54,985 nt of DNA from an uncultured virus (IMG/VR IMGVR_UViG_3300025626_002437) (lineage: Duplodnaviria; Heunggongvirae; Uroviricota; Caudoviricetes): the IMG/VR virus record IMGVR_UViG_3300025626_002437. One strand, given 5' to 3'. The number at the start of each line of letters is the position of its first letter. The first letter of the stretch is position 1. The translations under genes were made by a program, and so were the position numbers. The notes under the pieces were generated by a model. The model ran no database searches. It was not told the origin of the DNA and worked only from the letters and a program-made list of their open reading frames with translations. Positions 28,544-53,237 of the stretch are shown one piece after another.

Positions 28544-28602
28544 CTTTCGATCTCCTAATCACATGTTATACATGCTATTGCATTTATTTATCTCTTTTCG
28601 GC

Positions 28603-38076: not shown

Positions 38077-39942
38077 TTACTTGTAAAGTTTTCTTATTTC
38101 GCCGTCAAATAATGGGGCGTACATTTTTACAGGATCTACTTTACCTTTAACAGTAACTTCTCCTATATTACCAAATGCTATGTTAGGGCATTCCATATAA
38201 GTATATTCAGAAACAATAATTGGTGTGTCTTCTGCTCTTGTTTGTGCTTCTAATCTAGCACCTAAGTTTACAGCATCACCTACCACACTATAATCTAATC
38301 TAGTTTCAGCACCCATGTTGCCGACAATACATGTACCTGTGTTTACACCTGTACCAAATTTTACTCTTGGCAAGCCACGTTCTTCCATTTCTTTTTCTAA
38401 TTCGTCACCTAATAGTTCAATCTCTATTGCTGTTTTAACGGCCATCTCAGCATGATTCTCACATGGTAGTGGTGCATTCCAAAATGCCATTATACAGTCA
38501 CCCATGAACTTGTCTATTGTGCCACCGTTCTTTAAAACTATCTTAGTCATTTTATCTAAGAAACTGTTTATTAGTTCTACTAGTCCTTCTGGGTCATCTG
38601 CTTTCATATACTTTTCTGATATGGGTGTAAAGCCGACTATGTCAGCAAACATAAAACTCATTTCTTTTCTTTCGCCACCTAGTTTCATTAGACTAGGATC
38701 TTTAACTAACATATCAACATAGTCCGGGGATATATAAGTACCAAACTGTCCTTTGATTTGTTGACGTAATTTGTATTGTTTATAGAAGTTATTAAATGCT
38801 GATTGTGTAAACACTAAAAATCCACTTAACACAGGAAAAGTTGCATCTACTAATTGTAATTTATTTTGATATAACCACACACTACCATATGCTTCTCCAC
38901 CTAAAATCAGCAGTGAAATCGGTGCTGTCCACAGCAATGGTAACTTATACACCGCTAAGGCTATTAAAATCATACCACACAACGCACACAGAAGTTCTAT
39001 AAGCGACGATAACTGGCTCCGCTGTATATTTGATCCATCTATAAAGTTCTGTAGCATGTGTGCTTGTATATGCTGTGGATACATGTTGCCTCTTGGAGTA
39101 GGTACAGGGTTAGCAATACCTTCTGCTGTAACACCTACTATAACAAACTTTCCACCCATATTAGGTAAACTGTTTATGTCCGTATATTCTACTTCTTCAA
39201 ACGTATTATTGTAACGTATATATGCATCGCCTTTTGGCAATGTTACTATAGGATCAAAAGGCGGAACTGCAAATTCGTTTATGCCTATCTCTGTTGTTTT
39301 AATCATGTAACTGGGTTTGCCTGTTTGTACTCGTAACATTTCTATAGCAAAACTAGGATATATTTTTCCCTCTACTCCTATTGCTAATGGATACGTTCTT
39401 GTAACAAAATCAGGTTGTGGTGCTGATGCATTTACGCCTATGCCAAGTGCTTCTGCTTCTAGTTCAGGTATGTTTGTTACTAAATTTGGCCAAGTTAGGA
39501 GAAAGTCCTGTGCTGTTGTAGGACCGATTACTCCAGTGCCAATATGAGGTCCTGTGGTCTTGATTCCTCTTGTGCTTGGTGTCTGAGATAACACTATTCC
39601 GTTACCCTTTATCCATGAAGCAAAAACTTCGTCTCCTCCAAATCTATCTGCTTCAGGAAACATAAGAGTGAAGCCTACTATGCCTTGATTCTTTTGTCTA
39701 ATATCATATATGAGTTGAGCGTATGTAGTTCTAGGAAAAGGATACTGCCCTAATGTTTCTAGACTTTTTTCGCCTATGTTAATAATAACAACTTCGTTGC
39801 TTTGTTTAATTTCGTCTAGTTTTTGATATGCATCAAATGTTTGATTTCTTAAATTCTGTATTGGTGTAGGATCAACTACTTGGAGTGCTGTAAGTAATAA
39901 TATAGATACTATTACAGCATAACCACTATAAACCCATTTCAT
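38077..39942 (-). CDS. CHASE2-domain membrane adenylate cyclase (class III)
   Basis: N-terminal TM, CHASE2 motifs (GQYPFPR, FPEADR, YPSFAIE), 3 TM helices, catalytic FADIVGFT, DKFMGD, SVVGDAVNLGARLE. Start ATG 39942 forms an ATGA overlap. Confidence 0.92.
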   Translation of the reverse strand: MKWVYSGYAVIVSILLLTALQVVDPTPIQNLRNQTFDAYQKLDEIKQSNEVVIINIGEKSLETLGQYPFPRTTYAQLIYDIRQKNQGIVGFTLMFPEADRFGGDEVFASWIKGNGIVLSQTPSTRGIKTTGPHIGTGVIGPTTAQDFLLTWPNLVTNIPELEAEALGIGVNASAPQPDFVTRTYPLAIGVEGKIYPSFAIEMLRVQTGKPSYMIKTTEIGINEFAVPPFDPIVTLPKGDAYIRYNNTFEEVEYTDINSLPNMGGKFVIVGVTAEGIANPVPTPRGNMYPQHIQAHMLQNFIDGSNIQRSQLSSLIELLCALCGMILIALAVYKLPLLWTAPISLLILGGEAYGSVWLYQNKLQLVDATFPVLSGFLVFTQSAFNNFYKQYKLRQQIKGQFGTYISPDYVDMLVKDPSLMKLGGERKEMSFMFADIVGFTPISEKYMKADDPEGLVELINSFLDKMTKIVLKNGGTIDKFMGDCIMAFWNAPLPCENHAEMAVKTAIEIELLGDELEKEMEERGLPRVKFGTGVNTGTCIVGNMGAETRLDYSVVGDAVNLGARLEAQTRAEDTPIIVSEYTYMECPNIAFGNIGEVTVKGKVDPVKMYAPLFDGEIRKLYK

Positions 39943-40193
39943 TCTTTTGGATATCCTTCGTACCATTCTTTGATAGTATTGACTCTTACATCACGCCATG
40001 CTTTTTTATCTAATGCATACATAATAATTGTATCACTAGTAGTATCGTATTTTTTTATATCAATACTTTGTTTATGTATTTCTTGATTAAGAGTACACGG
40101 CATAGTTCGAATTTCTTTTGTGTCTATCTTTTCAAATACTACTGTTACTACTCCTTGCCTAAGAGCATCTATAATTTTGTTTGAATCCATCAA
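39939..40193 (-). CDS. small WYL_2/SH3-like phage protein
   Basis: GVVTVVFEK...RTMPCTL...DKKAWR pattern. Confidence 0.65.
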   Translation of the reverse strand: MMDSNKIIDALRQGVVTVVFEKIDTKEIRTMPCTLNQEIHKQSIDIKKYDTTSDTIIMYALDKKAWRDVRVNTIKEWYEGYPKE

Positions 40194-40930
40194 TCTACAA
40201 ATGCTCTTTCTAACATAAAGTCACCCATTTCGCCTGTATTACCTTCTTGCCAATTTAGTGTTTTAAACAAAGTACGACATTCCTTATTCATACCTGGAGA
40301 ACCGCACACCATTATGCCGTCTCTTTCTTTGAGGAAGCCACCTGGTAAAAATTCTTCAACATATTGCCAAAAGCGACCAGTTCTACCATAGTCTTCTCTA
40401 GTTACAGTTGGTATGTAAGTAAAAGGTAAATCTTCTTCTATACTATTTAGCGATTCTATGTATGCTAATTCGTTTACATTTCTTACTGTGTGAAACAAAT
40501 ATACTTTTTTAAATCTGCTGTATGTATCAGGGTCGTTGACAATACTAACAAATGGTGCTACTCCAGTGCCAGTTGCTAATAATACTAAATTATCTTTAGG
40601 GTTCAAATAATCACATACCAAACTACCTGTGACTTTTGGATTAATTAATATTTCATCACCAATTTGTAAATTCTTTAATTTGCTTGTTAGCGGACCATCT
40701 GGTACTATAATACTTAGAAACTCTAAATGGTCATCATAGTTTGTGCTTACAATACTGTATGCTCTCATTGTTTTCTTAGGTAGAGGACTGCCTTTTACAG
40801 TTGTGTCTACATCTAAACCAATCATAGCAAATTCACCATTTTTAAAACGGAATGTTTTATCGCGTGTGGTTTTAAAACTAAACAGCCTATCTGAGTAGTG
40901 TTTGATTTCTATTACTTTTTCTTTTAACAC
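40190..40930 (-). CDS. fpr: ferredoxin/flavodoxin-NADP+ reductase
   Basis: RAYSI, GPLTSKL, ATGTGVAPF, MVCGSPGM, ERAFVD C-terminus. GTG start. Confidence 0.93.
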   Translation of the reverse strand: MLKEKVIEIKHYSDRLFSFKTTRDKTFRFKNGEFAMIGLDVDTTVKGSPLPKKTMRAYSIVSTNYDDHLEFLSIIVPDGPLTSKLKNLQIGDEILINPKVTGSLVCDYLNPKDNLVLLATGTGVAPFVSIVNDPDTYSRFKKVYLFHTVRNVNELAYIESLNSIEEDLPFTYIPTVTREDYGRTGRFWQYVEEFLPGGFLKERDGIMVCGSPGMNKECRTLFKTLNWQEGNTGEMGDFMLERAFVD

Positions 40931-40944
40931 AGATATATTTATTG

Positions 40945-41418
40945 CTATCTTATTTTATTACAACTGTCTTTGGCTTGATTAAGCAATCTAAAGTTATTTG
41001 CAACTACCATAGAATATACAATATTAGTATCGTTTAATTCCTCTGGTGACACAGTTTTATAATAATCGTCATACAATAAGCCAGGCAGAAGCAATACACT
41101 TTTTGTTAATACTATTCTTGTGTTACTTGGATGTTCTGTATACAGTGGATTTACTTCTTTTACACAATCATACTTTACTGCCCGTGATGTTGAGTAAGCA
41201 TCTAATACTTGAAATGTCCAAAATGCTAACCATTGTTTTGTTGTTGCTGTTTCGTATAATTCAAATTTGGGTATTGATGATGGTAGGGGCCTACATTCTA
41301 CTGGATTGTTATCACAATAGTTGTAGTCTAGTGGGGGATTATAAGTAAGGTCTAAAACACGATCCTCTGCTATTGCTAACAGAGGAAGTGTTAATAAAAT
41401 TAAAAGTAACTTACTCAC
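40945..41418 (-). CDS. secreted/membrane hypothetical protein
   Basis: Signal peptide, YCDNNPVEC motif, LDAYST...EVNP. Confidence 0.7.
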   Translation of the reverse strand: MSKLLLILLTLPLLAIAEDRVLDLTYNPPLDYNYCDNNPVECRPLPSSIPKFELYETATTKQWLAFWTFQVLDAYSTSRAVKYDCVKEVNPLYTEHPSNTRIVLTKSVLLLPGLLYDDYYKTVSPEELNDTNIVYSMVVANNFRLLNQAKDSCNKIR

Positions 41419-41587
41419 ATTCTTTTGGATTTTTGGAACAGTACTCCATTAGTTTTTGATATAACTTAATCTGGCGTATAAACTCCTGTATCTCCTCATC
41501 TGAATATTGCTCATCCTCTTCTGAGGGTAAGTCTTCTTTTTTATTTCCTAAATTAAATTTAGGAATTTTAAAGAATGAGCGTTTTAC
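41411..41587 (-). CDS. -1 frameshift extension (58 aa) of the upstream lipoprotein
   Basis: Open -1 frame with no initiation codon at its 5' end, entered at A AAA AAG. Its TAA overlaps the next gene's GTG. Confidence 0.75.
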   Translation of the reverse strand, partial: VKRSFFKIPKFNLGNKKEDLPSEEDEQYSDEEIQEFIRQIKLYQKLMEYCSKNPKECE

Positions 41588-41593
41588 TTTTTT
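41509..41593 (-). other. programmed -1 frameshift signal: slippery heptamer plus stimulatory stem
   Basis: A AAA AAG (41593-41587), 6-nt spacer, GCTCATTCTTT (41580-41570) pairing with AGAGGATGAGC (41519-41509), enclosing a 9-bp hairpin. Confidence 0.75.
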
Positions 41594-41907
41594 GGTTCTT
41601 CTTTTGGTTCTTCTTTTTGTACTGCATCAGTAGATTCGTCAACAACTGTAGCGACTGTTTCGACTGTACCAGCAACTAAGTCTCCAGCAGTTTGACCAAC
41701 ACCGACAACAAGTTCTGCACCTGCTTGTCCGATTCTTGATCCTTCGTCTACTACTGTTGTAACTACATTGCTTGTAGTTCCTAGAACAACATCAACTGTT
41801 CCAGCAACACCTTGTTGTACGCCATCGGAAATAGCACCAACAGTGGCGCAACCTTGTGCGAACATTACAAAAAATATACCAAAGAACACGTTTTTTAATT
41901 CTTTCAT
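41584..41907 (-). CDS. lipoprotein (short form)
   Basis: Signal peptide with lipobox-like AQG-C, Val/Thr/Gly-rich helix, AGGAG RBS, GATAAATA at 41965-41972. Confidence 0.8.
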   Translation of the reverse strand: MKELKNVFFGIFFVMFAQGCATVGAISDGVQQGVAGTVDVVLGTTSNVVTTVVDEGSRIGQAGAELVVGVGQTAGDLVAGTVETVATVVDESTDAVQKEEPKEEPKK

Positions 41908-41978
41908 TTATTTTCTCCTTATATATAAGATTGTTATAAAACCATCTGTTATTATAACAGTATATATTTATCTAAAAT

Positions 41979-42287
41979 TTAGATGCCGTGACTGTTAAAC
42001 AGACTTTTACCTGACAAACTGTTTTCATCGTGTAAAAATAGTTCATACGTCAATAAGTCTTTGGTGTGCTGATTATTGGAGGTGTGTATTAAATGTAATA
42101 TTTGATTCCTGTTGTCTTCTTCTATTCTAACTATTAGTTCACACCAATGCCAAAATACCACAAATGTAAGTGGTATGAACACAACTTTTATTACAAACAC
42201 TGGAAAGAAGTATGCAAATATTAAAAAGTGTATACCTATAACAGATAGGGAATATATCCTAAGACTGTTTAACCATTTTGTAACCAT
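41979..42287 (-). CDS. membrane protein
   Basis: 102 aa with two hydrophobic segments. Confidence 0.6.
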   Translation of the reverse strand: MVTKWLNSLRIYSLSVIGIHFLIFAYFFPVFVIKVVFIPLTFVVFWHWCELIVRIEEDNRNQILHLIHTSNNQHTKDLLTYELFLHDENSLSGKSLFNSHGI

Positions 42288-42293
42288 AAGTGT

Positions 42294-42461
42294 TTATGAA
42301 TTAGGACTACCAATGCCTAATTGCTCTAGGTATGCGTTGCTGTGCCAATATGTGTCCAGCACAATATCAGTCACAAGAGCAATTAACACTAAAGTTAGTA
42401 TTACAGATAGATATAGATTTATACCGGCTGTTATCTTCAGCCACTTGATCATATGTTTCAT
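42294..42461 (-). CDS. small membrane protein (55 aa, not in ORF track)
   Basis: MKHMIKWLKITAGINLYLSVILTLVLIALVTDIVLDTYWHSNAYLEQLGIGSPNS, preceded by a consensus promoter. Confidence 0.7.
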   Translation of the reverse strand: MKHMIKWLKITAGINLYLSVILTLVLIALVTDIVLDTYWHSNAYLEQLGIGSPNS

Positions 42462-42469
42462 TACTTTGT

Positions 42470-42498
42470 ATTATAGTACAGAAATCGTACTATGTCAA
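42470..42498 (-). promoter_or_regulatory. consensus sigma70 promoter
   Basis: TTGACA-N17-TATAAT. Confidence 0.85.
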
Positions 42499-42502
42499 CC
42501 AA

Positions 42503-43612
42503 TTAGTTATCTTGATTTATTGAGACTGAACAGCCTCCTATAGTGTTACATACACCGGTGATGCTGTAACTTACAGCACTTGAACCCACGTTTTGAGATA
42601 AATCAAATGTGTAAGCACCAGTACCATATGTTAAATCAATCGCCGCTGTTGCGGAATTACTGCCTCGTTGATTAACATCTACAGTATGTCCGTTGCCGTC
42701 TAAAACGACATCTGCCCATTTAACACCACCGTTACCTCGTTGATATAAATCCACAGTATTACTATCACCGGCTATTTCTATAAAGCCATCGTGTCCTGCT
42801 TTTCCCATTTGTATATGCTCTACACTATTACTGTCACCACTAATAATATTTGTTAAATGGTGTCCTGCACCACCACTACTTCTGTTTGTGTCTGTTTGAT
42901 AACTTGCTAACATATTATTATCTCCAGTCACAGTCCAGTATGCTTCATGGTCGCCTACTTCATCTACATCAGTTGTGCCGTCTGAATGTTTGCCTTGCCA
43001 TATTCTGAGATCATTATTATCTGAACCTGAACCCATAAAAGCACTAATATAATTGTTATCCTGCCCTGCACCCTGGAAAGCATCGATACTATTATTAGTA
43101 CCAGTAAATACTTCGAGGTAAGCATAATGATCATCGCCTGCTTGCCAAAGTTGTATTTCATTATTAGTGTGAAGGTTGGAGCCACCTACTTCTAACCAAG
43201 CATAATTGTCATCACCCATTATGTCTGCTTTGAGTTGACCATAGTTACCATGGTTATCTAAAAATAATTTGTTGTTATTACCTTCTACATAGCCATCCAA
43301 TGATTGATCACTACCACTAGTCCATATACCTAAAACATTATTGTTGCCTCTTTGTTGTAGGCTTACTGTATTTGTAGCACCATTAAGATAGGCGTTACCT
43401 ACTCCGTTGTTTAAAGATCCAACTTTATTTCCGTATCCTTCTTGTAATATATCTAGTGTTAGATTATCACCTTGTTGATCTAATAATACTTCGTTATCTT
43501 GTGCCTGTGCTGATAAAGGTATCAATAAAAACATACCCAATATCACATAACCCAATACTAACAATGGGGTGTCTTTGGGTTCCATTTCGTTTAATCTTTC
43601 GTCTATGTTCAT
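42503..43612 (-). CDS. curlin-repeat secreted protein (CsgA/B-like)
   Basis: Signal peptide (AQA), many Q-x-G-x-x-N / G-D-x-N beta-solenoid repeats. Confidence 0.8.
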   Translation of the reverse strand: MNIDERLNEMEPKDTPLLVLGYVILGMFLLIPLSAQAQDNEVLLDQQGDNLTLDILQEGYGNKVGSLNNGVGNAYLNGATNTVSLQQRGNNNVLGIWTSGSDQSLDGYVEGNNNKLFLDNHGNYGQLKADIMGDDNYAWLEVGGSNLHTNNEIQLWQAGDDHYAYLEVFTGTNNSIDAFQGAGQDNNYISAFMGSGSDNNDLRIWQGKHSDGTTDVDEVGDHEAYWTVTGDNNMLASYQTDTNRSSGGAGHHLTNIISGDSNSVEHIQMGKAGHDGFIEIAGDSNTVDLYQRGNGGVKWADVVLDGNGHTVDVNQRGSNSATAAIDLTYGTGAYTFDLSQNVGSSAVSYSITGVCNTIGGCSVSINQDN

Positions 43613-43620
43613 AATACTAT

Positions 43621-44787
43621 TTATTCCTGTGTAATAGTTATCCTTATTCCGTCACAGTTATTTAGACACATCACAGTCTCACCTAAGTCTTTATCTCTTA
43701 CTTCTATAATTCCTGCTGAACCTCTTTTAATTTTTAATCCCACATAATTTGTACTGACTCTGAGAAAAAATACTTTACCGTCTACATCTGGTACTATGTT
43801 AAATTGGTTGTCTGGTTGCAATCCAAAACCTCTGTCTACTAGCCTATCACTACCACTGGCTTCTTCTTGTCCTGCTAATGCATCTGCTTCTTCAATTACT
43901 TCCAATAAATCTCTTAAAAAGTCTACATCTAGGAAATTAATATCTAATTCTGTAAATTGTAATTCACGTTCTGCTTGTTCGTCTAAACCTTCTATTTCCA
44001 GTAGGTCTACATCTAATCCGTTAAAGTCCAACAAGCCACCATCACCTTTTAATTGGTCTGCTTGTTCTTCTTCTGCCTGTACAATTTCCTCAGGCTTACT
44101 CACAATAAACATATTGTCAATCTGATTTAAATCCAAATCAACTAATGTCACAGGTTGCGTTGGTGATTGTTCAAACGTACTCACCATTACAGCCTGAAAG
44201 GCTTCTTCTAATGTCACTGTTCCGCCATCATTGGTAACTGTTATACTACCACTAGGCCTACAACCTTCCTCTAATTTTACTTTGTCATTACAATTTGCGT
44301 CTGGTAATAATATTACCAAACTTCTACCCAGTTCATCTACTGTGGTAGTAAAATCTGTTCCCCTAATACCTATACTTGCAGTAGGAGTCTGTATCTGTAT
44401 ATTTTCTTTTGGTACTAATCCTAAACCCCCGGTGGCAAATCTTGCTGTACCTGACACAAAATTCATTGCCATTTTACTTTTACTAGGGTTTGGATCATAC
44501 ACATACTCTGTAATTTCTATCAGTGTATGTTCTGTTAAACTGATTTGTGTATCGTCAACAAACTTAATTTTAAGTCTGCCATTTTCTGTTTCTACATTGT
44601 CGTAACTTTGTACATCTGTATCTAACTGTGCTGTTAATTCTTCGCCTGTGGTCCTAACAATACTGCCAGGTTTACCACTTTGTTCAAATACGCCGCCAAT
44701 TGGTTCGGCGGCGTATAAGTTTCCTATTGCAATTAGTAAAACTGCGACTACGAATTTAGTCGGTTTGTTTAATACTAACTGAAGCAT
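43621..44787 (-). CDS. FecR-domain secreted protein
   Basis: Signal peptide, FVDDTQISL, GTARF, IQTPTASIGIRGTDF. Confidence 0.85.
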   Translation of the reverse strand: MLQLVLNKPTKFVVAVLLIAIGNLYAAEPIGGVFEQSGKPGSIVRTTGEELTAQLDTDVQSYDNVETENGRLKIKFVDDTQISLTEHTLIEITEYVYDPNPSKSKMAMNFVSGTARFATGGLGLVPKENIQIQTPTASIGIRGTDFTTTVDELGRSLVILLPDANCNDKVKLEEGCRPSGSITVTNDGGTVTLEEAFQAVMVSTFEQSPTQPVTLVDLDLNQIDNMFIVSKPEEIVQAEEEQADQLKGDGGLLDFNGLDVDLLEIEGLDEQAERELQFTELDINFLDVDFLRDLLEVIEEADALAGQEEASGSDRLVDRGFGLQPDNQFNIVPDVDGKVFFLRVSTNYVGLKIKRGSAGIIEVRDKDLGETVMCLNNCDGIRITITQE

Positions 44788-45547
44788 TTTCGCTGTCTAT
44801 TTCGACGTTGATAGTACCTGTACAAGCAGGCGTACATGTTGTAGTCATATTCTGAGTGAACTGGAAATCTCCATCACTACCGTCTATGTCTGCTGTAAGA
44901 CTTGCACCACTATTTCCGCTCTGTGATGTTGCTAAAGCATTATCATCACCGGTAATGTCGAAGTTCCACACAACATTGTCTGCATCAACTAAGATACCTA
45001 CCATTGTGCTTGTTCCAGTGTTATTTGTGCCAACACCGGCCGCCCAAACATTACTGTTAGTAAAACTTGTATCAAAATCATTTCTGCTACCTAGTATTAC
45101 TAAATCAAAGTTTAAATATTCTGCACTAGCACTTTCGCCTATGCCTATGTCAAATATGTTACCGTCACCCTGTATGCTTGAAAGCATATCAGCATAGTCG
45201 GCACTACCTGTTGATCCTGCATCAATGTCAAAGATGTTACCACTACCTAAGTTGTAAAAATCTAAAACACTGGAGCCACTACCGTCTAAAACTATAGATC
45301 CAAAAAAGTCATTGTTATCACCGTCTTGTATGAGGTCTAGTATTATACTACCACCACTTAGTAATAAGTCAGAACTTTCTGTTGCGTCTCCCGACACAGT
45401 ATTACCTATACCAGCCTGCAAAATCGTAAGCACTAAGTTATCACCGTCTTGATCTAGTAAAACTTCGTTGTCATCTGCAAGTATTGGATAGGACATCAGT
45501 CCGATTAAAGCGAAGACACTAACCGCTAAGTTTTTAAATATCTTCAT
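44756..45547 (-). CDS. curlin-repeat secreted protein (CsgA/B-like)
   Basis: Signal peptide, DNEVLLDQDGDNL shared with 42503..43612, repeated QxGxxN/GDxN units. Confidence 0.75.
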   Translation of the reverse strand: MKIFKNLAVSVFALIGLMSYPILADDNEVLLDQDGDNLVLTILQAGIGNTVSGDATESSDLLLSGGSIILDLIQDGDNNDFFGSIVLDGSGSSVLDFYNLGSGNIFDIDAGSTGSADYADMLSSIQGDGNIFDIGIGESASAEYLNFDLVILGSRNDFDTSFTNSNVWAAGVGTNNTGTSTMVGILVDADNVVWNFDITGDDNALATSQSGNSGASLTADIDGSDGDFQFTQNMTTTCTPACTGTINVEIDSENASVSIKQTD

Positions 45548-46568
45548 TGTTATTCTCCATTAATGGTTTATTATTCTTTAGAAGAACCTTCTTCCAAAGT
45601 GGTAATGAGTTTGGGTCTTTTGAAAATTGTTTTTCATCCTCCTCGTCAGGAAGAACACCAGATTCTTTGAGACTCATCCAGTATGCCTGTTCTTGTTCGG
45701 CTACTTGTGAGTCCCAATCTTCTGGATACACTATCTTCCAGTATCCTCTTTCATCACCTTGCTTAATAAGTTCTAACACCGCGGCCTCAATCGCTGATCG
45801 GACTGCAAATGTTACACTTTCGTTTTGTGTCATTCCGCTCTCAAGTTCGAGGAGTTTAGTATCCATATCTAAAAATCTAAATACATCTCCTGCTTGACCT
45901 GAACTTAAAACGGTCTTCTGTGTTTGGACATTGAGTATTACTTCGCCTGTGAGTGTGCTTACAGCACGAAGTGATATTACTATACTGTCCCTTCGATATT
46001 GGTTTGTTGTACCAATACCCAAATATCTTGCCCCTGTACCTCCTGTTTCAATATTAGTGTCGTATCCTATAACACCACCTTCTAATATCATTCCAGCAAA
46101 TAACATTGGCTGTAGTTCTTGAAACTCATCTAATCCTGCCTGTTTGGCTGACTCTGAACGAGTTGCTCTTACTATTTGCCTTTCTCTAACTAAGTTATCT
46201 AAACCTAGTCCTCTTTCAACTACTCTAAACCAAGTTCCTTTTGGATTCTCTCCTGAACCTGCCGCCTTTAGAGCGTCTACTAATAAACTTTTTGCGTCTT
46301 GCGTAACTGCTGTACTAAAACTAGCAACTCCGTCTTGACTTTTTCTTTGTCCTGTTCCATCACCAAAATTGTATATGGCAACCACAGGCATAACTTCTGC
46401 CGGTGGCAAGTATCTTAATTTTCTATATGTAGGTAGTTCTACTTTGCTTGGTTCTTCAACACATTCAAGAAAGTCAGTTTGGCACATCTCGTCACCCGGG
46501 ATGGCGATACTTGCACAACCACTTAAATATAAAACACCTATTAATGCTGTTACTATACTTTTATTCAT
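45534..46568 (-). CDS. csgG: curli secretion channel lipoprotein CsgG
   Basis: Lipobox LSGC, VAIYNF.D.TGQ, FSTAVTQ, WFRVVER, LVRERQI, EGGVIGYD, GARYLGIG. Confidence 0.92.
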   Translation of the reverse strand: MNKSIVTALIGVLYLSGCASIAIPGDEMCQTDFLECVEEPSKVELPTYRKLRYLPPAEVMPVVAIYNFGDGTGQRKSQDGVASFSTAVTQDAKSLLVDALKAAGSGENPKGTWFRVVERGLGLDNLVRERQIVRATRSESAKQAGLDEFQELQPMLFAGMILEGGVIGYDTNIETGGTGARYLGIGTTNQYRRDSIVISLRAVSTLTGEVILNVQTQKTVLSSGQAGDVFRFLDMDTKLLELESGMTQNESVTFAVRSAIEAAVLELIKQGDERGYWKIVYPEDWDSQVAEQEQAYWMSLKESGVLPDEEDEKQFSKDPNSLPLWKKVLLKNNKPLMENNNEDI

Positions 46569-47080
46569 TAACCGCCTGCTATATTACCTATGCCAATTGG
46601 TATTTCTATTGTTGTTATTGTTCCATCTGGGTCAACGATAGTAAGTTGGATTACTTCTAATCCATCTGCGTTTGTGATTATTTGATATGAAACTGTATTA
46701 CCCTCAATATCAAATGCACCACTTGTTGAGCCTGTACAACTTATTACCGTTGCTGGGTCGCAAAACATACTGTCTACGAGGCCCTTAGAAATTTGACTGT
46801 AAATTCTGCTTTCCAAATTTCTAATGAACTTGTTAATTGTGCTGTTTTGATCTTCTCTTTCAGCCTGTTTTAAAGCCGCTTCAATGTCACTTTTAATTTT
46901 ATCTCTACGTGACTTTTCCTGATTCTCAATAGTTAAATAATGAGCACCTGTTCCTTGTCCACTAAAACTAGGACTTTTAAATTTAAATTTAATTTCGTCT
47001 GCTTGTAGATCGGCAGTTGTGGCTATTAAAAAATAACCTACTATAACTAGTAATCCTAAATGTGTTCCTGTAATTTTCAT
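46568..47080 (-). CDS. csgF: curli assembly component CsgF
   Basis: Mature N-terminus EIKFKFKSPSFSG (CsgF F-x-N/S-P-x-F-G-G type), C-terminal DGTITTIEIP, coupled to csgG. Confidence 0.85.
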   Translation of the reverse strand: MKITGTHLGLLVIVGYFLIATTADLQADEIKFKFKSPSFSGQGTGAHYLTIENQEKSRRDKIKSDIEAALKQAEREDQNSTINKFIRNLESRIYSQISKGLVDSMFCDPATVISCTGSTSGAFDIEGNTVSYQIITNADGLEVIQLTIVDPDGTITTIEIPIGIGNIAGG

Positions 47081-47081
47081 T

Positions 47082-47378
47082 CTATTCGTCTCCTGCCTTT
47101 TTCATTTTTTTAAATTCTTCTTTTTCCATGGCATCCGCTAAAAGTTTTTGCGTTGCTCTATATTCTAAAACAACATTAACTTTTTGTTGTAGACGTATTT
47201 GATCTTGGTCTAACATTCTCATTTGATCAATACATCTAATAAGTGCCATATGCATATCACCGAGTGCAGGTTTGATTTCTTGGTTCATAAAATTCCATAC
47301 ATAATATATGAAATAACCTAAACCTACTACTGCTACTACTGGAAATCCGTATTCGTTAATTAGTGCCGCAATATCCAT
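47082..47378 (-). CDS. single-TM + coiled-coil protein (YvrJ/BhlA holin-like)
   Basis: LINEYGFPVVAVVGLGYFIY followed by an amphipathic helix. Confidence 0.6.
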   Translation of the reverse strand: MDIAALINEYGFPVVAVVGLGYFIYYVWNFMNQEIKPALGDMHMALIRCIDQMRMLDQDQIRLQQKVNVVLEYRATQKLLADAMEKEEFKKMKKAGDE

Positions 47379-47674
47379 TAGTCTCTCCTACTATCCACTT
47401 TGCCATCTTCAACAAAATTTTCTGCTCTTGCTATTCTATCAATGTCTGGTCTTAATTCTAAAGCACTACTAACAAGCAGATCAATCTTAATCATCTCGTT
47501 ACTCATTACTCTTGCTCTAGTGGTTAGTGCTTCACAGAAACTTGTGAGCGTTTTGACTTGGCCAACAACGCCGGCCATCATTTGCTTTATTGTGAGGAAT
47601 ATGAAATACCCCATTGCCATACTTCCAGCAATAGGCATACCTACCTCCGCTATTAACTTAAATATTTCTTCCAT
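47378..47674 (-). CDS. single-TM + coiled-coil protein, paralogue of neighbour
   Basis: LIAEVGMPIAGSMAMGYFIF. Same length (98 aa) and layout as 47082..47378. Confidence 0.6.
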   Translation of the reverse strand: MEEIFKLIAEVGMPIAGSMAMGYFIFLTIKQMMAGVVGQVKTLTSFCEALTTRARVMSNEMIKIDLLVSSALELRPDIDRIARAENFVEDGKVDSRRD

Positions 47675-52166: not shown

Positions 52167-53237
52167 CTATTTGAGTGGTTTTGATAGTTCTTCCCAACTA
52201 GTTTCGAAGTCTGAATCACCGTCTGCATAACCCATTACACCTAACTTTTCATATTCAGGTATAAGTTCGTCTGTTAGTAGTCCTATTCTTTTTAAGTTGG
52301 GCATTATTCTGCTGAATAACACATCTTGAAATTGTGTTTGAAACACATTTGCTTTATTATATTCTTCTGTAAACTCTATATCCATACCATATTTTTCCCA
52401 AACATCGTATGCTCGTAATCTGTTTCTGCTCACAGTACATGCCTCAAAGGCAAATTGTGCTCTATCTTGGCGTTCTTCTTCTGTAAGTGTTTTAACATAT
52501 TCTTCCAAGTAGTTCACACCAAAAGTCACATGCCTTGCTTCGTCTCTGATAATGTAATCTAGCATTTGTTCATACACAGGATCATTAGTTGCAGTTTTGG
52601 CCGCATTAAAGGCCGCTAGTGCTAGTCCTTCTATAACAATTTGCATACCAATAAACTTTAAATCCCAACGTGGGTCTGTAAGTATTTTATCTAATAGTCC
52701 TTTTAGTGCTGTGCCTATAGGCCATGTACGTTTAATTCTGGTTTGTAAGTATTTGTTAAAGGCTTCTACGTGTCTTGCTTCGTCAAATGTCTGTGAAGCC
52801 GCATATAGTTTGGCATTAAATGTTGGTGCACAACTGGCCAACTGACTTGCTACAAGTAAAGCACCTTGCTCGCCATGTAAAAATTGACTCGTTGACCAAG
52901 CATTTAAATCTTTAAAGAAATTTAAACGTTTTTCTTTATCCCATGATTTGTAATCAGGATGATCTTTCCATTGATTATCTTCAAAGTCAAATTCTTCGCT
53001 ACCAATATCAGAAAATGCTGGAGTCCAATCTACATCAACTTCCACATTCCAATTAAGTTTTTTACCTAATTCGTACAGTTTTCTTATGCGATTGTCTTGT
53101 ACTGTATAATCCCAATTATAAGTACCTGTTAATGGAGTTTGAAATATTTCTACAACATCTGTGGGTTCTAAATTTGCTGGATATTCGTCTTGATGTAATA
53201 TAACATCGCGGGGCGTATTGGATTTAACTATTTTCAT
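52167..53237 (-). CDS. ferritin-like diiron enzyme (AurF/N-oxygenase-like family)
   Basis: FLHGEQGAL, DEARHVEAF, IEGLALAAF and DEARHVTFG diiron ligand pattern. Confidence 0.8.
   Translation of the reverse strand: MKIVKSNTPRDVILHQDEYPANLEPTDVVEIFQTPLTGTYNWDYTVQDNRIRKLYELGKKLNWNVEVDVDWTPAFSDIGSEEFDFEDNQWKDHPDYKSWDKEKRLNFFKDLNAWSTSQFLHGEQGALLVASQLASCAPTFNAKLYAASQTFDEARHVEAFNKYLQTRIKRTWPIGTALKGLLDKILTDPRWDLKFIGMQIVIEGLALAAFNAAKTATNDPVYEQMLDYIIRDEARHVTFGVNYLEEYVKTLTEEERQDRAQFAFEACTVSRNRLRAYDVWEKYGMDIEFTEEYNKANVFQTQFQDVLFSRIMPNLKRIGLLTDELIPEYEKLGVMGYADGDSDFETSWEELSKPLK

Follow-up and report, generated by a model that had tools for sequence, protein, structure and literature searches.

The window, that is the whole stretch of 54,985 nucleotides analysed here (an uncultured virus of the Caudoviricetes, IMG/VR record IMGVR_UViG_3300025626_002437), encodes terminase, tail sheath, gp32-like, RecA and T4 gp15-like proteins and, judged by this gene content, comes from a T4-like myophage. 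No tRNA genes were found in the window. A gene for a small predicted lipoprotein lies on its minus strand, with the following features in and around it:

38077..47674, minus strand: curli-like module with CsgF, CsgG, two curlin-repeat proteins, FecR and a CHASE2 adenylate cyclase
41979..42498, minus strand: upstream unit, a perfect sigma-70 promoter (42498..42470) followed by genes for 55-aa and 102-aa membrane proteins
41965..41972, minus strand: late-promoter-like motif GATAAATA
41932..41959, minus strand: leader hairpin (7-bp stem, one-base bulge, 3-bp stem, AGWUG loop), from covariation
41915..41920, minus strand: Shine-Dalgarno AAGGAG, from the sequence
41584..41907, minus strand: short-form lipoprotein ORF, 107 aa, ending CCA AAA AAG TAA, from the sequence
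41587..41593, minus strand: slippery heptamer A AAA AAG abutting the TAA stop, from the sequence
41581..41586, minus strand: spacer of 6 nt (5 nt in -2/+1 relatives), from the sequence
41509..41580, minus strand: stem 1, 11 bp, arms 41580..41570 and 41519..41509, from covariation
41565..41545, minus strand: inner hairpin, 9 bp, inside stem 1, from single-sequence folding
41494..41526, minus strand: probable pseudoknot stem 2, CCUC(A) at 41526..41522 with (U)GAGG at 41498..41494, from conservation
41411..41587, minus strand: -1 frame extension of 58 codons, from a pN/pS of 0.24 and stops in the other frames
41363..41386, minus strand: 3′ hairpin, 25 nt past the extension stop, in the signal-peptide codons of the next gene
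40945..41418, minus strand: downstream gene for a 157-aa secreted protein, matched weakly and below cut-off by DUF5658

From the heptamer onwards the -1 frame stays open up to a TAA (41413..41411) that overlaps the GTG of the next gene at 41418, and the conceptual -1 fusion has 165 aa. This frame is closed by a TGA at 41627, 13 codons upstream of the slip site; within the open -1 frame, ATG, GTG and TTG are absent before the slip site, and the sole ATG is codon 47 of the 58. A preliminary description of the locus had reported the lipoprotein ORF with its heptamer at the stop, the startless -1 frame with a single late ATG, its overlap with the next gene, and an 11-bp stem located 6 nt after the heptamer and enclosing a 9-bp hairpin; all were found in place. 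That reading did not include the late promoter, the leader hairpin, the pairing that probably forms a pseudoknot, or a -2 variant. Among the 52 other window genes, none ends with an X XXY YYZ heptamer within three codon positions of its end; the in-frame A AAA AAG occurs once in 15,721 codons.

Relatives were found mostly via the lipoprotein. Queries with it and with two relatives gave 47 viral and 19 metagenome loci, the best 80 of 124 loci (distant relative) and 7 loci (another relative); L110 came from a separate search, its contig being also matched by the lipoprotein query. Once loci at contig ends (L083, L085 and L099 run off theirs), false matches (L008-L010 and L101) and duplicates were removed, at least 87 distinct cassettes were available, which are related by descent, and their counts are not independent events. 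A canonical -1 heptamer occupies the last two codon positions in 80 of the 87 cassettes, as A AAA AAG (n=70), G GGA AAG (n=6) or G GGA AAC (n=4). A AAA AAG lies at the stop in 51 cases and one codon earlier in 19 (L157 counted by hand); where the stop is thus shifted, it is the heptamer and not the stop that keeps its distance to the stem. In all but one of the 80, the -1 frame leads to a helix and a two-cysteine motif, Y/H-C-x6-C; the exception is L204, where it stops before the cysteines. The seven other cassettes are two complete losses (L082 and L151), where heptamer and tail disappeared together and a terminator-like hairpin follows the stop, and five members of a -2/+1 group described below.

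The reverse approach consisted of choosing 52 loci by the tail motif alone, many of them on contigs shared with the lipoprotein-derived cassettes. The tail was in the -1 frame in 48, in the -2/+1 frame in 3, and cut by a contig end in 1; in-frame fusions or stand-alone tail genes were absent (0/52). The preliminary description had named single in-frame homologues and loss of the -1 ORF as evidence against frameshifting: the former appeared in neither the 87 cassettes nor the 52 motif loci, and the latter can be set beside the retention of the ORF in 80/87, 79 of them with both cysteines. By tblastn, no homologue of the lipoprotein, of a distant relative or of the downstream gene was found in GenBank phages, and a pattern-limited search of 185,579 prokaryote genomes gave none. 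Some observations on individual members can be added. L204 (1152-1260) has a G GGA AAC site and a -1 frame ending after 28 codons, possibly a decaying or truncated tail; the distant members L198-L202 have 62-70-codon tails running past the cysteines to a hydrophobic end (FFILF, ILDIFY); L047 and L087 share 96% identity in their bodies and only 76% in their frameshift cassettes, indicating that bodies and cassettes recombine.

We then considered whether the shifted frame is coding. In ungapped blocks of 21-28 codons ending at the two-cysteine motif, pN/pS was 0.24 (21 sequences), 0.25 (20) and 0.12 (19); the blocks leave aside 13 cassettes whose tails carry a 10-residue insert or are otherwise unaligned, the seven members furthest removed (L100, L198-L202 and L204) and the two losses. 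The other frames contain stops in 20-21 of the 21 sequences of the first group and in nearly all sequences overall. By these measures the tail is under purifying selection. The distance from the stop to the first cysteine takes 20 values between 50 and 194 nt, all in the -1 frame, and no start codon for the tail is conserved among the cassettes compared. Stop-codon readthrough was rejected, as it yields short unconserved peptides only.

Gene callers annotate the tail as a separate small gene, starting from its own GTG or TTG or from a non-standard codon. Databases hold 32 such calls of 35-83 aa, and a GTG preceded by a GAGGA-like sequence is present in 11 of 34 sequences. The GTG is however missing in the window and in 23/34, the called starts vary by genome, the would-be ribosome-binding site lies inside stem 1, the frame is kept back to the heptamer across the 20 linker lengths, and not one of the 52 motif loci stands alone, which makes an independent gene extremely improbable.

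As the slip site is a homopolymer run, one might suspect that a single in-frame gene was split by a sequencing or assembly indel, or that the locus is a pseudogene in decay; the preliminary description had proposed an A7 run in reads as a test. The main contigs, rather than raw reads, carry A6: the run is unchanged and without gap in RNA contigs of two studies (X17 record 19 and X20 record 26) and in the DNA contig X12. Moreover, five IMG/VR contigs share an identical protein and junction, none of the 87 cassettes or 52 motif loci is an in-frame fusion, selection on the tail is purifying, and the sole long database match (P0058, one contig) joins the tail to unrelated sequence. The probability of this explanation is next to nil. 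Transcriptional slippage, in which an A added by RNA polymerase within the A6 run would put the long form in frame, could call upon one minor X17 RNA contig with a seventh A (depth 4.35 of 159, about 3%). This contig has a depth below 5 and two other differences, and may represent an error, a relative or low-level slippage; X15, X20 and X12 are without A7. Relatives with G GGA AAG, G GGA AAC or AAG AAG have runs of 3-4 only, and the covarying stem is retained at ribosome spacing. We thus regard slippage as very unlikely. In RNA runs X17 and X20 contig depth is higher over the gene, a hint only, which cannot rank expression.

We examined the RNA structure downstream of the slip site. Folding of the 97 nt that follow the heptamer gave -20.8 kcal/mol (z -3.38, one of 200 shuffles as good). 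The RNAfold optimum is a three-way junction and not the 11-bp stem of the preliminary description. Conservation nevertheless favours the 11-bp stem: in 34 sequences of the window's group, 98.7% of stem 1 cells are paired, with two-sided changes at 4 pairs, while slid controls reach 47-60%. Relatives differ in the sequence of the inner hairpin, and L069 and L094 are without it. For stem 2, the four-pair core places GAGG about 10 nt after stem 1 and is kept in 33-34 of the 34 sequences with no compensatory change. Its C at a four-fold degenerate site is fixed in 34/34, against 5-11% C at such sites in 22 window genes, and its Glu codon is GAG in 33/34, against a window usage of 451 GAA and 92 GAG; shared ancestry weakens these counts. 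The second pairing probably forms a pseudoknot with stem 1. A local CCUC/GAGG hairpin given by RNAfold was discarded, one of its pairs being broken in 12/34. Distant groups carry unrelated simple hairpins at the same spacing after the slip site, some groups give little folding signal (L138, L165 and L194, z -0.6 to -1.1), and no Rfam family matched at gathering score.

Features of dnaX/IS3-type frameshift sites are found here: the window and 80/87 cassettes carry an X XXY YYZ heptamer in the zero frame, a 3′ RNA structure lies within 5-9 nt (6-nt spacer in the window, weak structure in the L138 group), and the shifted frame is startless and under coding selection. By eye, we saw no clear upstream Shine-Dalgarno stimulator, an optional element of the dnaX/IS3 type; the codons before the slip site show only a purine-rich GAAG/AGAG. 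The dnaX shift truncates its product. In the lipoprotein gene, unlike in dnaX, the shift would extend the product, and the stop abuts or nearly abuts the heptamer. E. coli dnaX and IS3 family elements (IS911, IS3) likewise combine A AAA AAG with a 3′ stem-loop, three-way junction or pseudoknot, and related IS3-type elements use different stimulators, as the lipoprotein family does (PMC5009743, in the part available).

A model of expression can thus be proposed. Most ribosomes translating the late mRNA of the lipoprotein would read AAA AAG and stop at UAA, giving the 107-aa product (mature, about 8.7 kDa without lipid). Some would be held by the 11-bp stem 6 nt downstream, probably pseudoknotted and carrying a hairpin in the first loop; both lysine tRNAs would slip back by one base onto AAA AAA and 58 more codons would be translated, resulting in a long product of 165 aa and about 15.8 kDa. 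On the sequence evidence, we infer with high confidence that the ribosome itself shifts at the heptamer, and the gene very probably uses programmed -1 frameshifting to produce proteins of 107 and 165 residues. Since slip sites and stimulators differ, the ratio of short to long form may vary between lineages.

Seven loci on separate contigs, corresponding to five distinct cassettes (L047, L048, L053, L072 and L093), read GAA AAG AAG UAR, and their spacer has 5 nt. In these loci the -1 frame ends 6 codons on, and a tail of 58-59 codons lies in the -2/+1 frame; L029/L034 are in this frame too, and do not shift by -1 at a tetramer. An upstream start in the +1 frame was rejected as well: there is none in L053, the ATG of L047/L048/L092 is without Shine-Dalgarno, and the same frame is open upstream in ordinary members. 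The group retained the stem, the pseudoknot pairing and a tail under purifying selection (pN/pS 0.13, 5 sequences). In trees of body and cassette (33 rows, midpoint root only), the -2/+1 cassette forms one side of a branch with support 100/98 and is found on three lipoprotein-body lineages, a single body clade being rejected (p-AU 1.7e-32).

By a -2 slip, the lysine tRNAs would re-pair with AAA AGA, the A site having one G-U; a +1 slip would give AGA AGU, and DNA alone cannot separate the two. Lin et al. described, for the HIV U6A site, an optimum of -2 shifting at a spacer shorter by 1-2 nt than that for -1 (PMC3458567, available in part), and a -2 reading of the 5-nt-spacer clade would fit this. 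We lean towards the view that, within one phage gene family, the ribosome was re-programmed from a -1 to a -2 slip by a spacer cut from 6 to 5 nt and a change of AAA AAG to AAG AAG, with later spread of the cassette by recombination to three different alleles of the lipoprotein. If true, this would be a natural bacterial case of spacer length setting the direction of the shift; it would also add an exported envelope protein to the prokaryotic -2 sites, which are rare beyond the Mu-type tail chaperones.

Expression of the gene was considered next. The motif GATAAATA, which we take to be a variant of the T4 late promoter TATAAATA, also precedes structural genes of the window (e.g. at 28592, 25490, 22682 and 34572). 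NATAARTA was present in 66 of 79 distinct leaders, in two of the 66 only at -7, and CAGWTKG in 55/79. The leader hairpin shows two-sided changes at all 10 of its pairs in 18 hand-picked leaders. Rfam freshwater-2 scored only 25.1 bits against it (cut-off 49.9), and no comparable leader hairpin was seen after the other late motifs of the window. With its fixed bulge and AGWUG loop it resembles a protein-binding operator in shape. The hairpin at 41363..41386 is probably the 3′ end of the mRNA or a stabiliser; a hairpin or terminator lies 3′ of the tail in most relatives, even where the next gene differs. As read from these signals and the strong ribosome-binding site, the lipoprotein gene is its own late transcription unit in T4-like marine phages.

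This unit adjoins curli, DNA polymerase, major capsid or gp32 genes. The 157-aa gene lies within 1.5 kb in 41/87 cassettes, the 55-aa gene is near 36/87, and 41 of 72 immediate upstream ORFs match the profile of the 102-aa family. The 55-aa and 102-aa genes accompany the lipoprotein across genomic contexts, often with an extra 102-aa paralogue. A motif of the 157-aa product, YCDNNPVEC, is similar to YCSKNPKEC of the tail, a unique match among ordinary ORFs of the window; shared origin or a shared partner is possible. Curli-like modules are already known from pelagiphages (PMC9599517, available in part), and the window CsgG shares about 43% identity with its counterpart in Pelagibacter phage HTVC008M. 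Accessory function in the phage curli/FecR/adenylate-cyclase module could be imagined, a curlin, FecR, CHASE2-cyclase or 157-aa neighbour being present within 1.5 kb in 55/87 cassettes. We find it rather unlikely: 32/87 are without such neighbours (several are short-flanked), some contexts are DNA polymerase, major capsid or gp32, the HTVC008M curli cluster has no annotated small gene at the corresponding place, and tblastn yields no homologue in GenBank phages.

The short form comprises a 19-aa signal, Cys20, an acidic amphipathic body of 11-residue repeats and a KK end. Cys20 is invariant in alignments A1 and A5, preceded by a leader of 15-22 residues which, by eye, is basic then hydrophobic, as in lipoproteins. 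The lipobox is AQGC in the window, a departure from the textbook consensus, and LPSC or LTGC in relatives. The hydrophobic period of the body is 3.67 residues (11/3), and in 37 sequences its length is 61 or 72, differing by exactly 11; such a period is known from lipid-surface helices and hendecad coiled coils. The tail consists of a disordered linker, then a single helix (residues 30-52, AlphaFold pLDDT 90-95) closed by YCSKNPKEC. Lipoprotein and tail were folded as two separate parts rather than as the whole fusion, and the lipoprotein model was uninformative (pLDDT 45.9). No Pfam, PHROG or NCBIfam family matched the lipoprotein above cut-off; for it the ESM Atlas offered only viral clusters without names and, at 0.86, a weak lead to DUF6726, for the tail nothing, and Foldseek of the tail model against viral structures gave 0 matches. 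Relationship to the HdeA/HdeB acid chaperones was rejected, only 13 residues matching (E 0.034) and the full four-helix domain being absent. A C-terminal lysine role is known from Braun lipoprotein; it was rejected here because the ends vary (KKD, KKG, GN).

Lipidation and outer-membrane sorting are predicted with good confidence, and both forms would therefore be exported and lipid-anchored by their shared signal peptide and amphipathic body. Only the long form would carry the tethered helix, whose two cysteines would form a disulfide in the periplasm. Tentatively, we picture a late envelope protein made in abundance, the short form coating the membrane and the minority long form docking on a partner via the capped helix, modifying the envelope of the infected cell; this might mask receptors against re-adsorption or superinfection. 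The long form could instead be an o-spanin-like lysis lipoprotein: it shares late timing, a lipoprotein signal plus a two-cysteine helix at the C-terminus with the T4 o-spanin PseT.2 (PMC6139136, in the part available). Against this, no i-spanin is adjacent, the upstream 102-aa protein reads as two-span and lies behind a sigma-70 promoter, inspection of neighbours and tails found no C-terminal membrane anchor, the tail is naturally lost in L151 and L082, and there is no profile match; such a role appears decidedly unlikely. Similarly to the lipoprotein, T5 Llp (bioRxiv 10.64898/2026.03.26.714494) and PseT.2 are small phage outer-membrane lipoproteins, but no homology to it was detected and no frameshift was seen for either in the available parts of these sources, and Llp is made shortly after infection, unlike the late-looking gene described here.

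Among phages, the known frameshifts are concentrated in tail-chaperone and virion genes. The CsoS2 frameshift of alpha-carboxysomes gives the short isoform as its shifted product. CsoS2A and CsoS2B are likewise frameshift isoforms, only one of which has the C-terminal attachment region, although CsoS2 is a cytoplasmic, cellular protein (PMC10484944, available in part). As far as PMC5009743 and PMC10885494 were accessible, the -1 shift of the lambda gpG/gpGT chaperone similarly lies near the first stop and gives short and C-terminally extended products, different phages reach one outcome by -1 or -2 (phage Mu by -2), and T4-like phages are cited as without a G-T frameshift. G GGA AAG and G GGA AAC, sites of the lambda-type chaperone shift in those accessible parts, are present in lipoprotein relatives. 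Unlike lambda G/GT, the present gene encodes an exported lipoprotein outside the tail operon, with no sequence likeness found; its identity as a tail assembly chaperone, a cytoplasmic protein whose gene sits between those for tail tube and tape measure, was rejected given the signal peptide with invariant Cys and the curli, cyclase, polymerase or capsid neighbours.

No published report of a frameshift in this lipoprotein family was found among the open-literature matches listed, subscription journals lying outside their scope. The words ‘frameshift’ and ‘lipoprotein’ are absent from the accessible main texts of the phage curli papers PMC9004378, PMC7029224 and PMC9599517, and ‘lipoprotein’ from the accessible part of the Atkins 2016 frameshift review and from the PRFect paper. 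We conclude that a classical frameshift mechanism operates, in all likelihood, in an unreported gene class. Widespread marine T4-like phages would, with this family, have a conserved frameshift in an envelope lipoprotein, the tail of which is overlooked or given a wrong start by gene callers. For the study of mechanism the family is a natural series, with three heptamers, two stop distances, the -2/+1 clade and complete losses, and spanning simple hairpins to a probable pseudoknot with a removable inner hairpin. Sequencing runs containing window DNA are labelled marine, estuarine or freshwater, or give no habitat. Elsewhere in the window (52167..53237, minus strand), a 356-aa ferritin-like diiron protein, with a weak AurF match below cut-off, is encoded between two collagen-repeat fibre genes.
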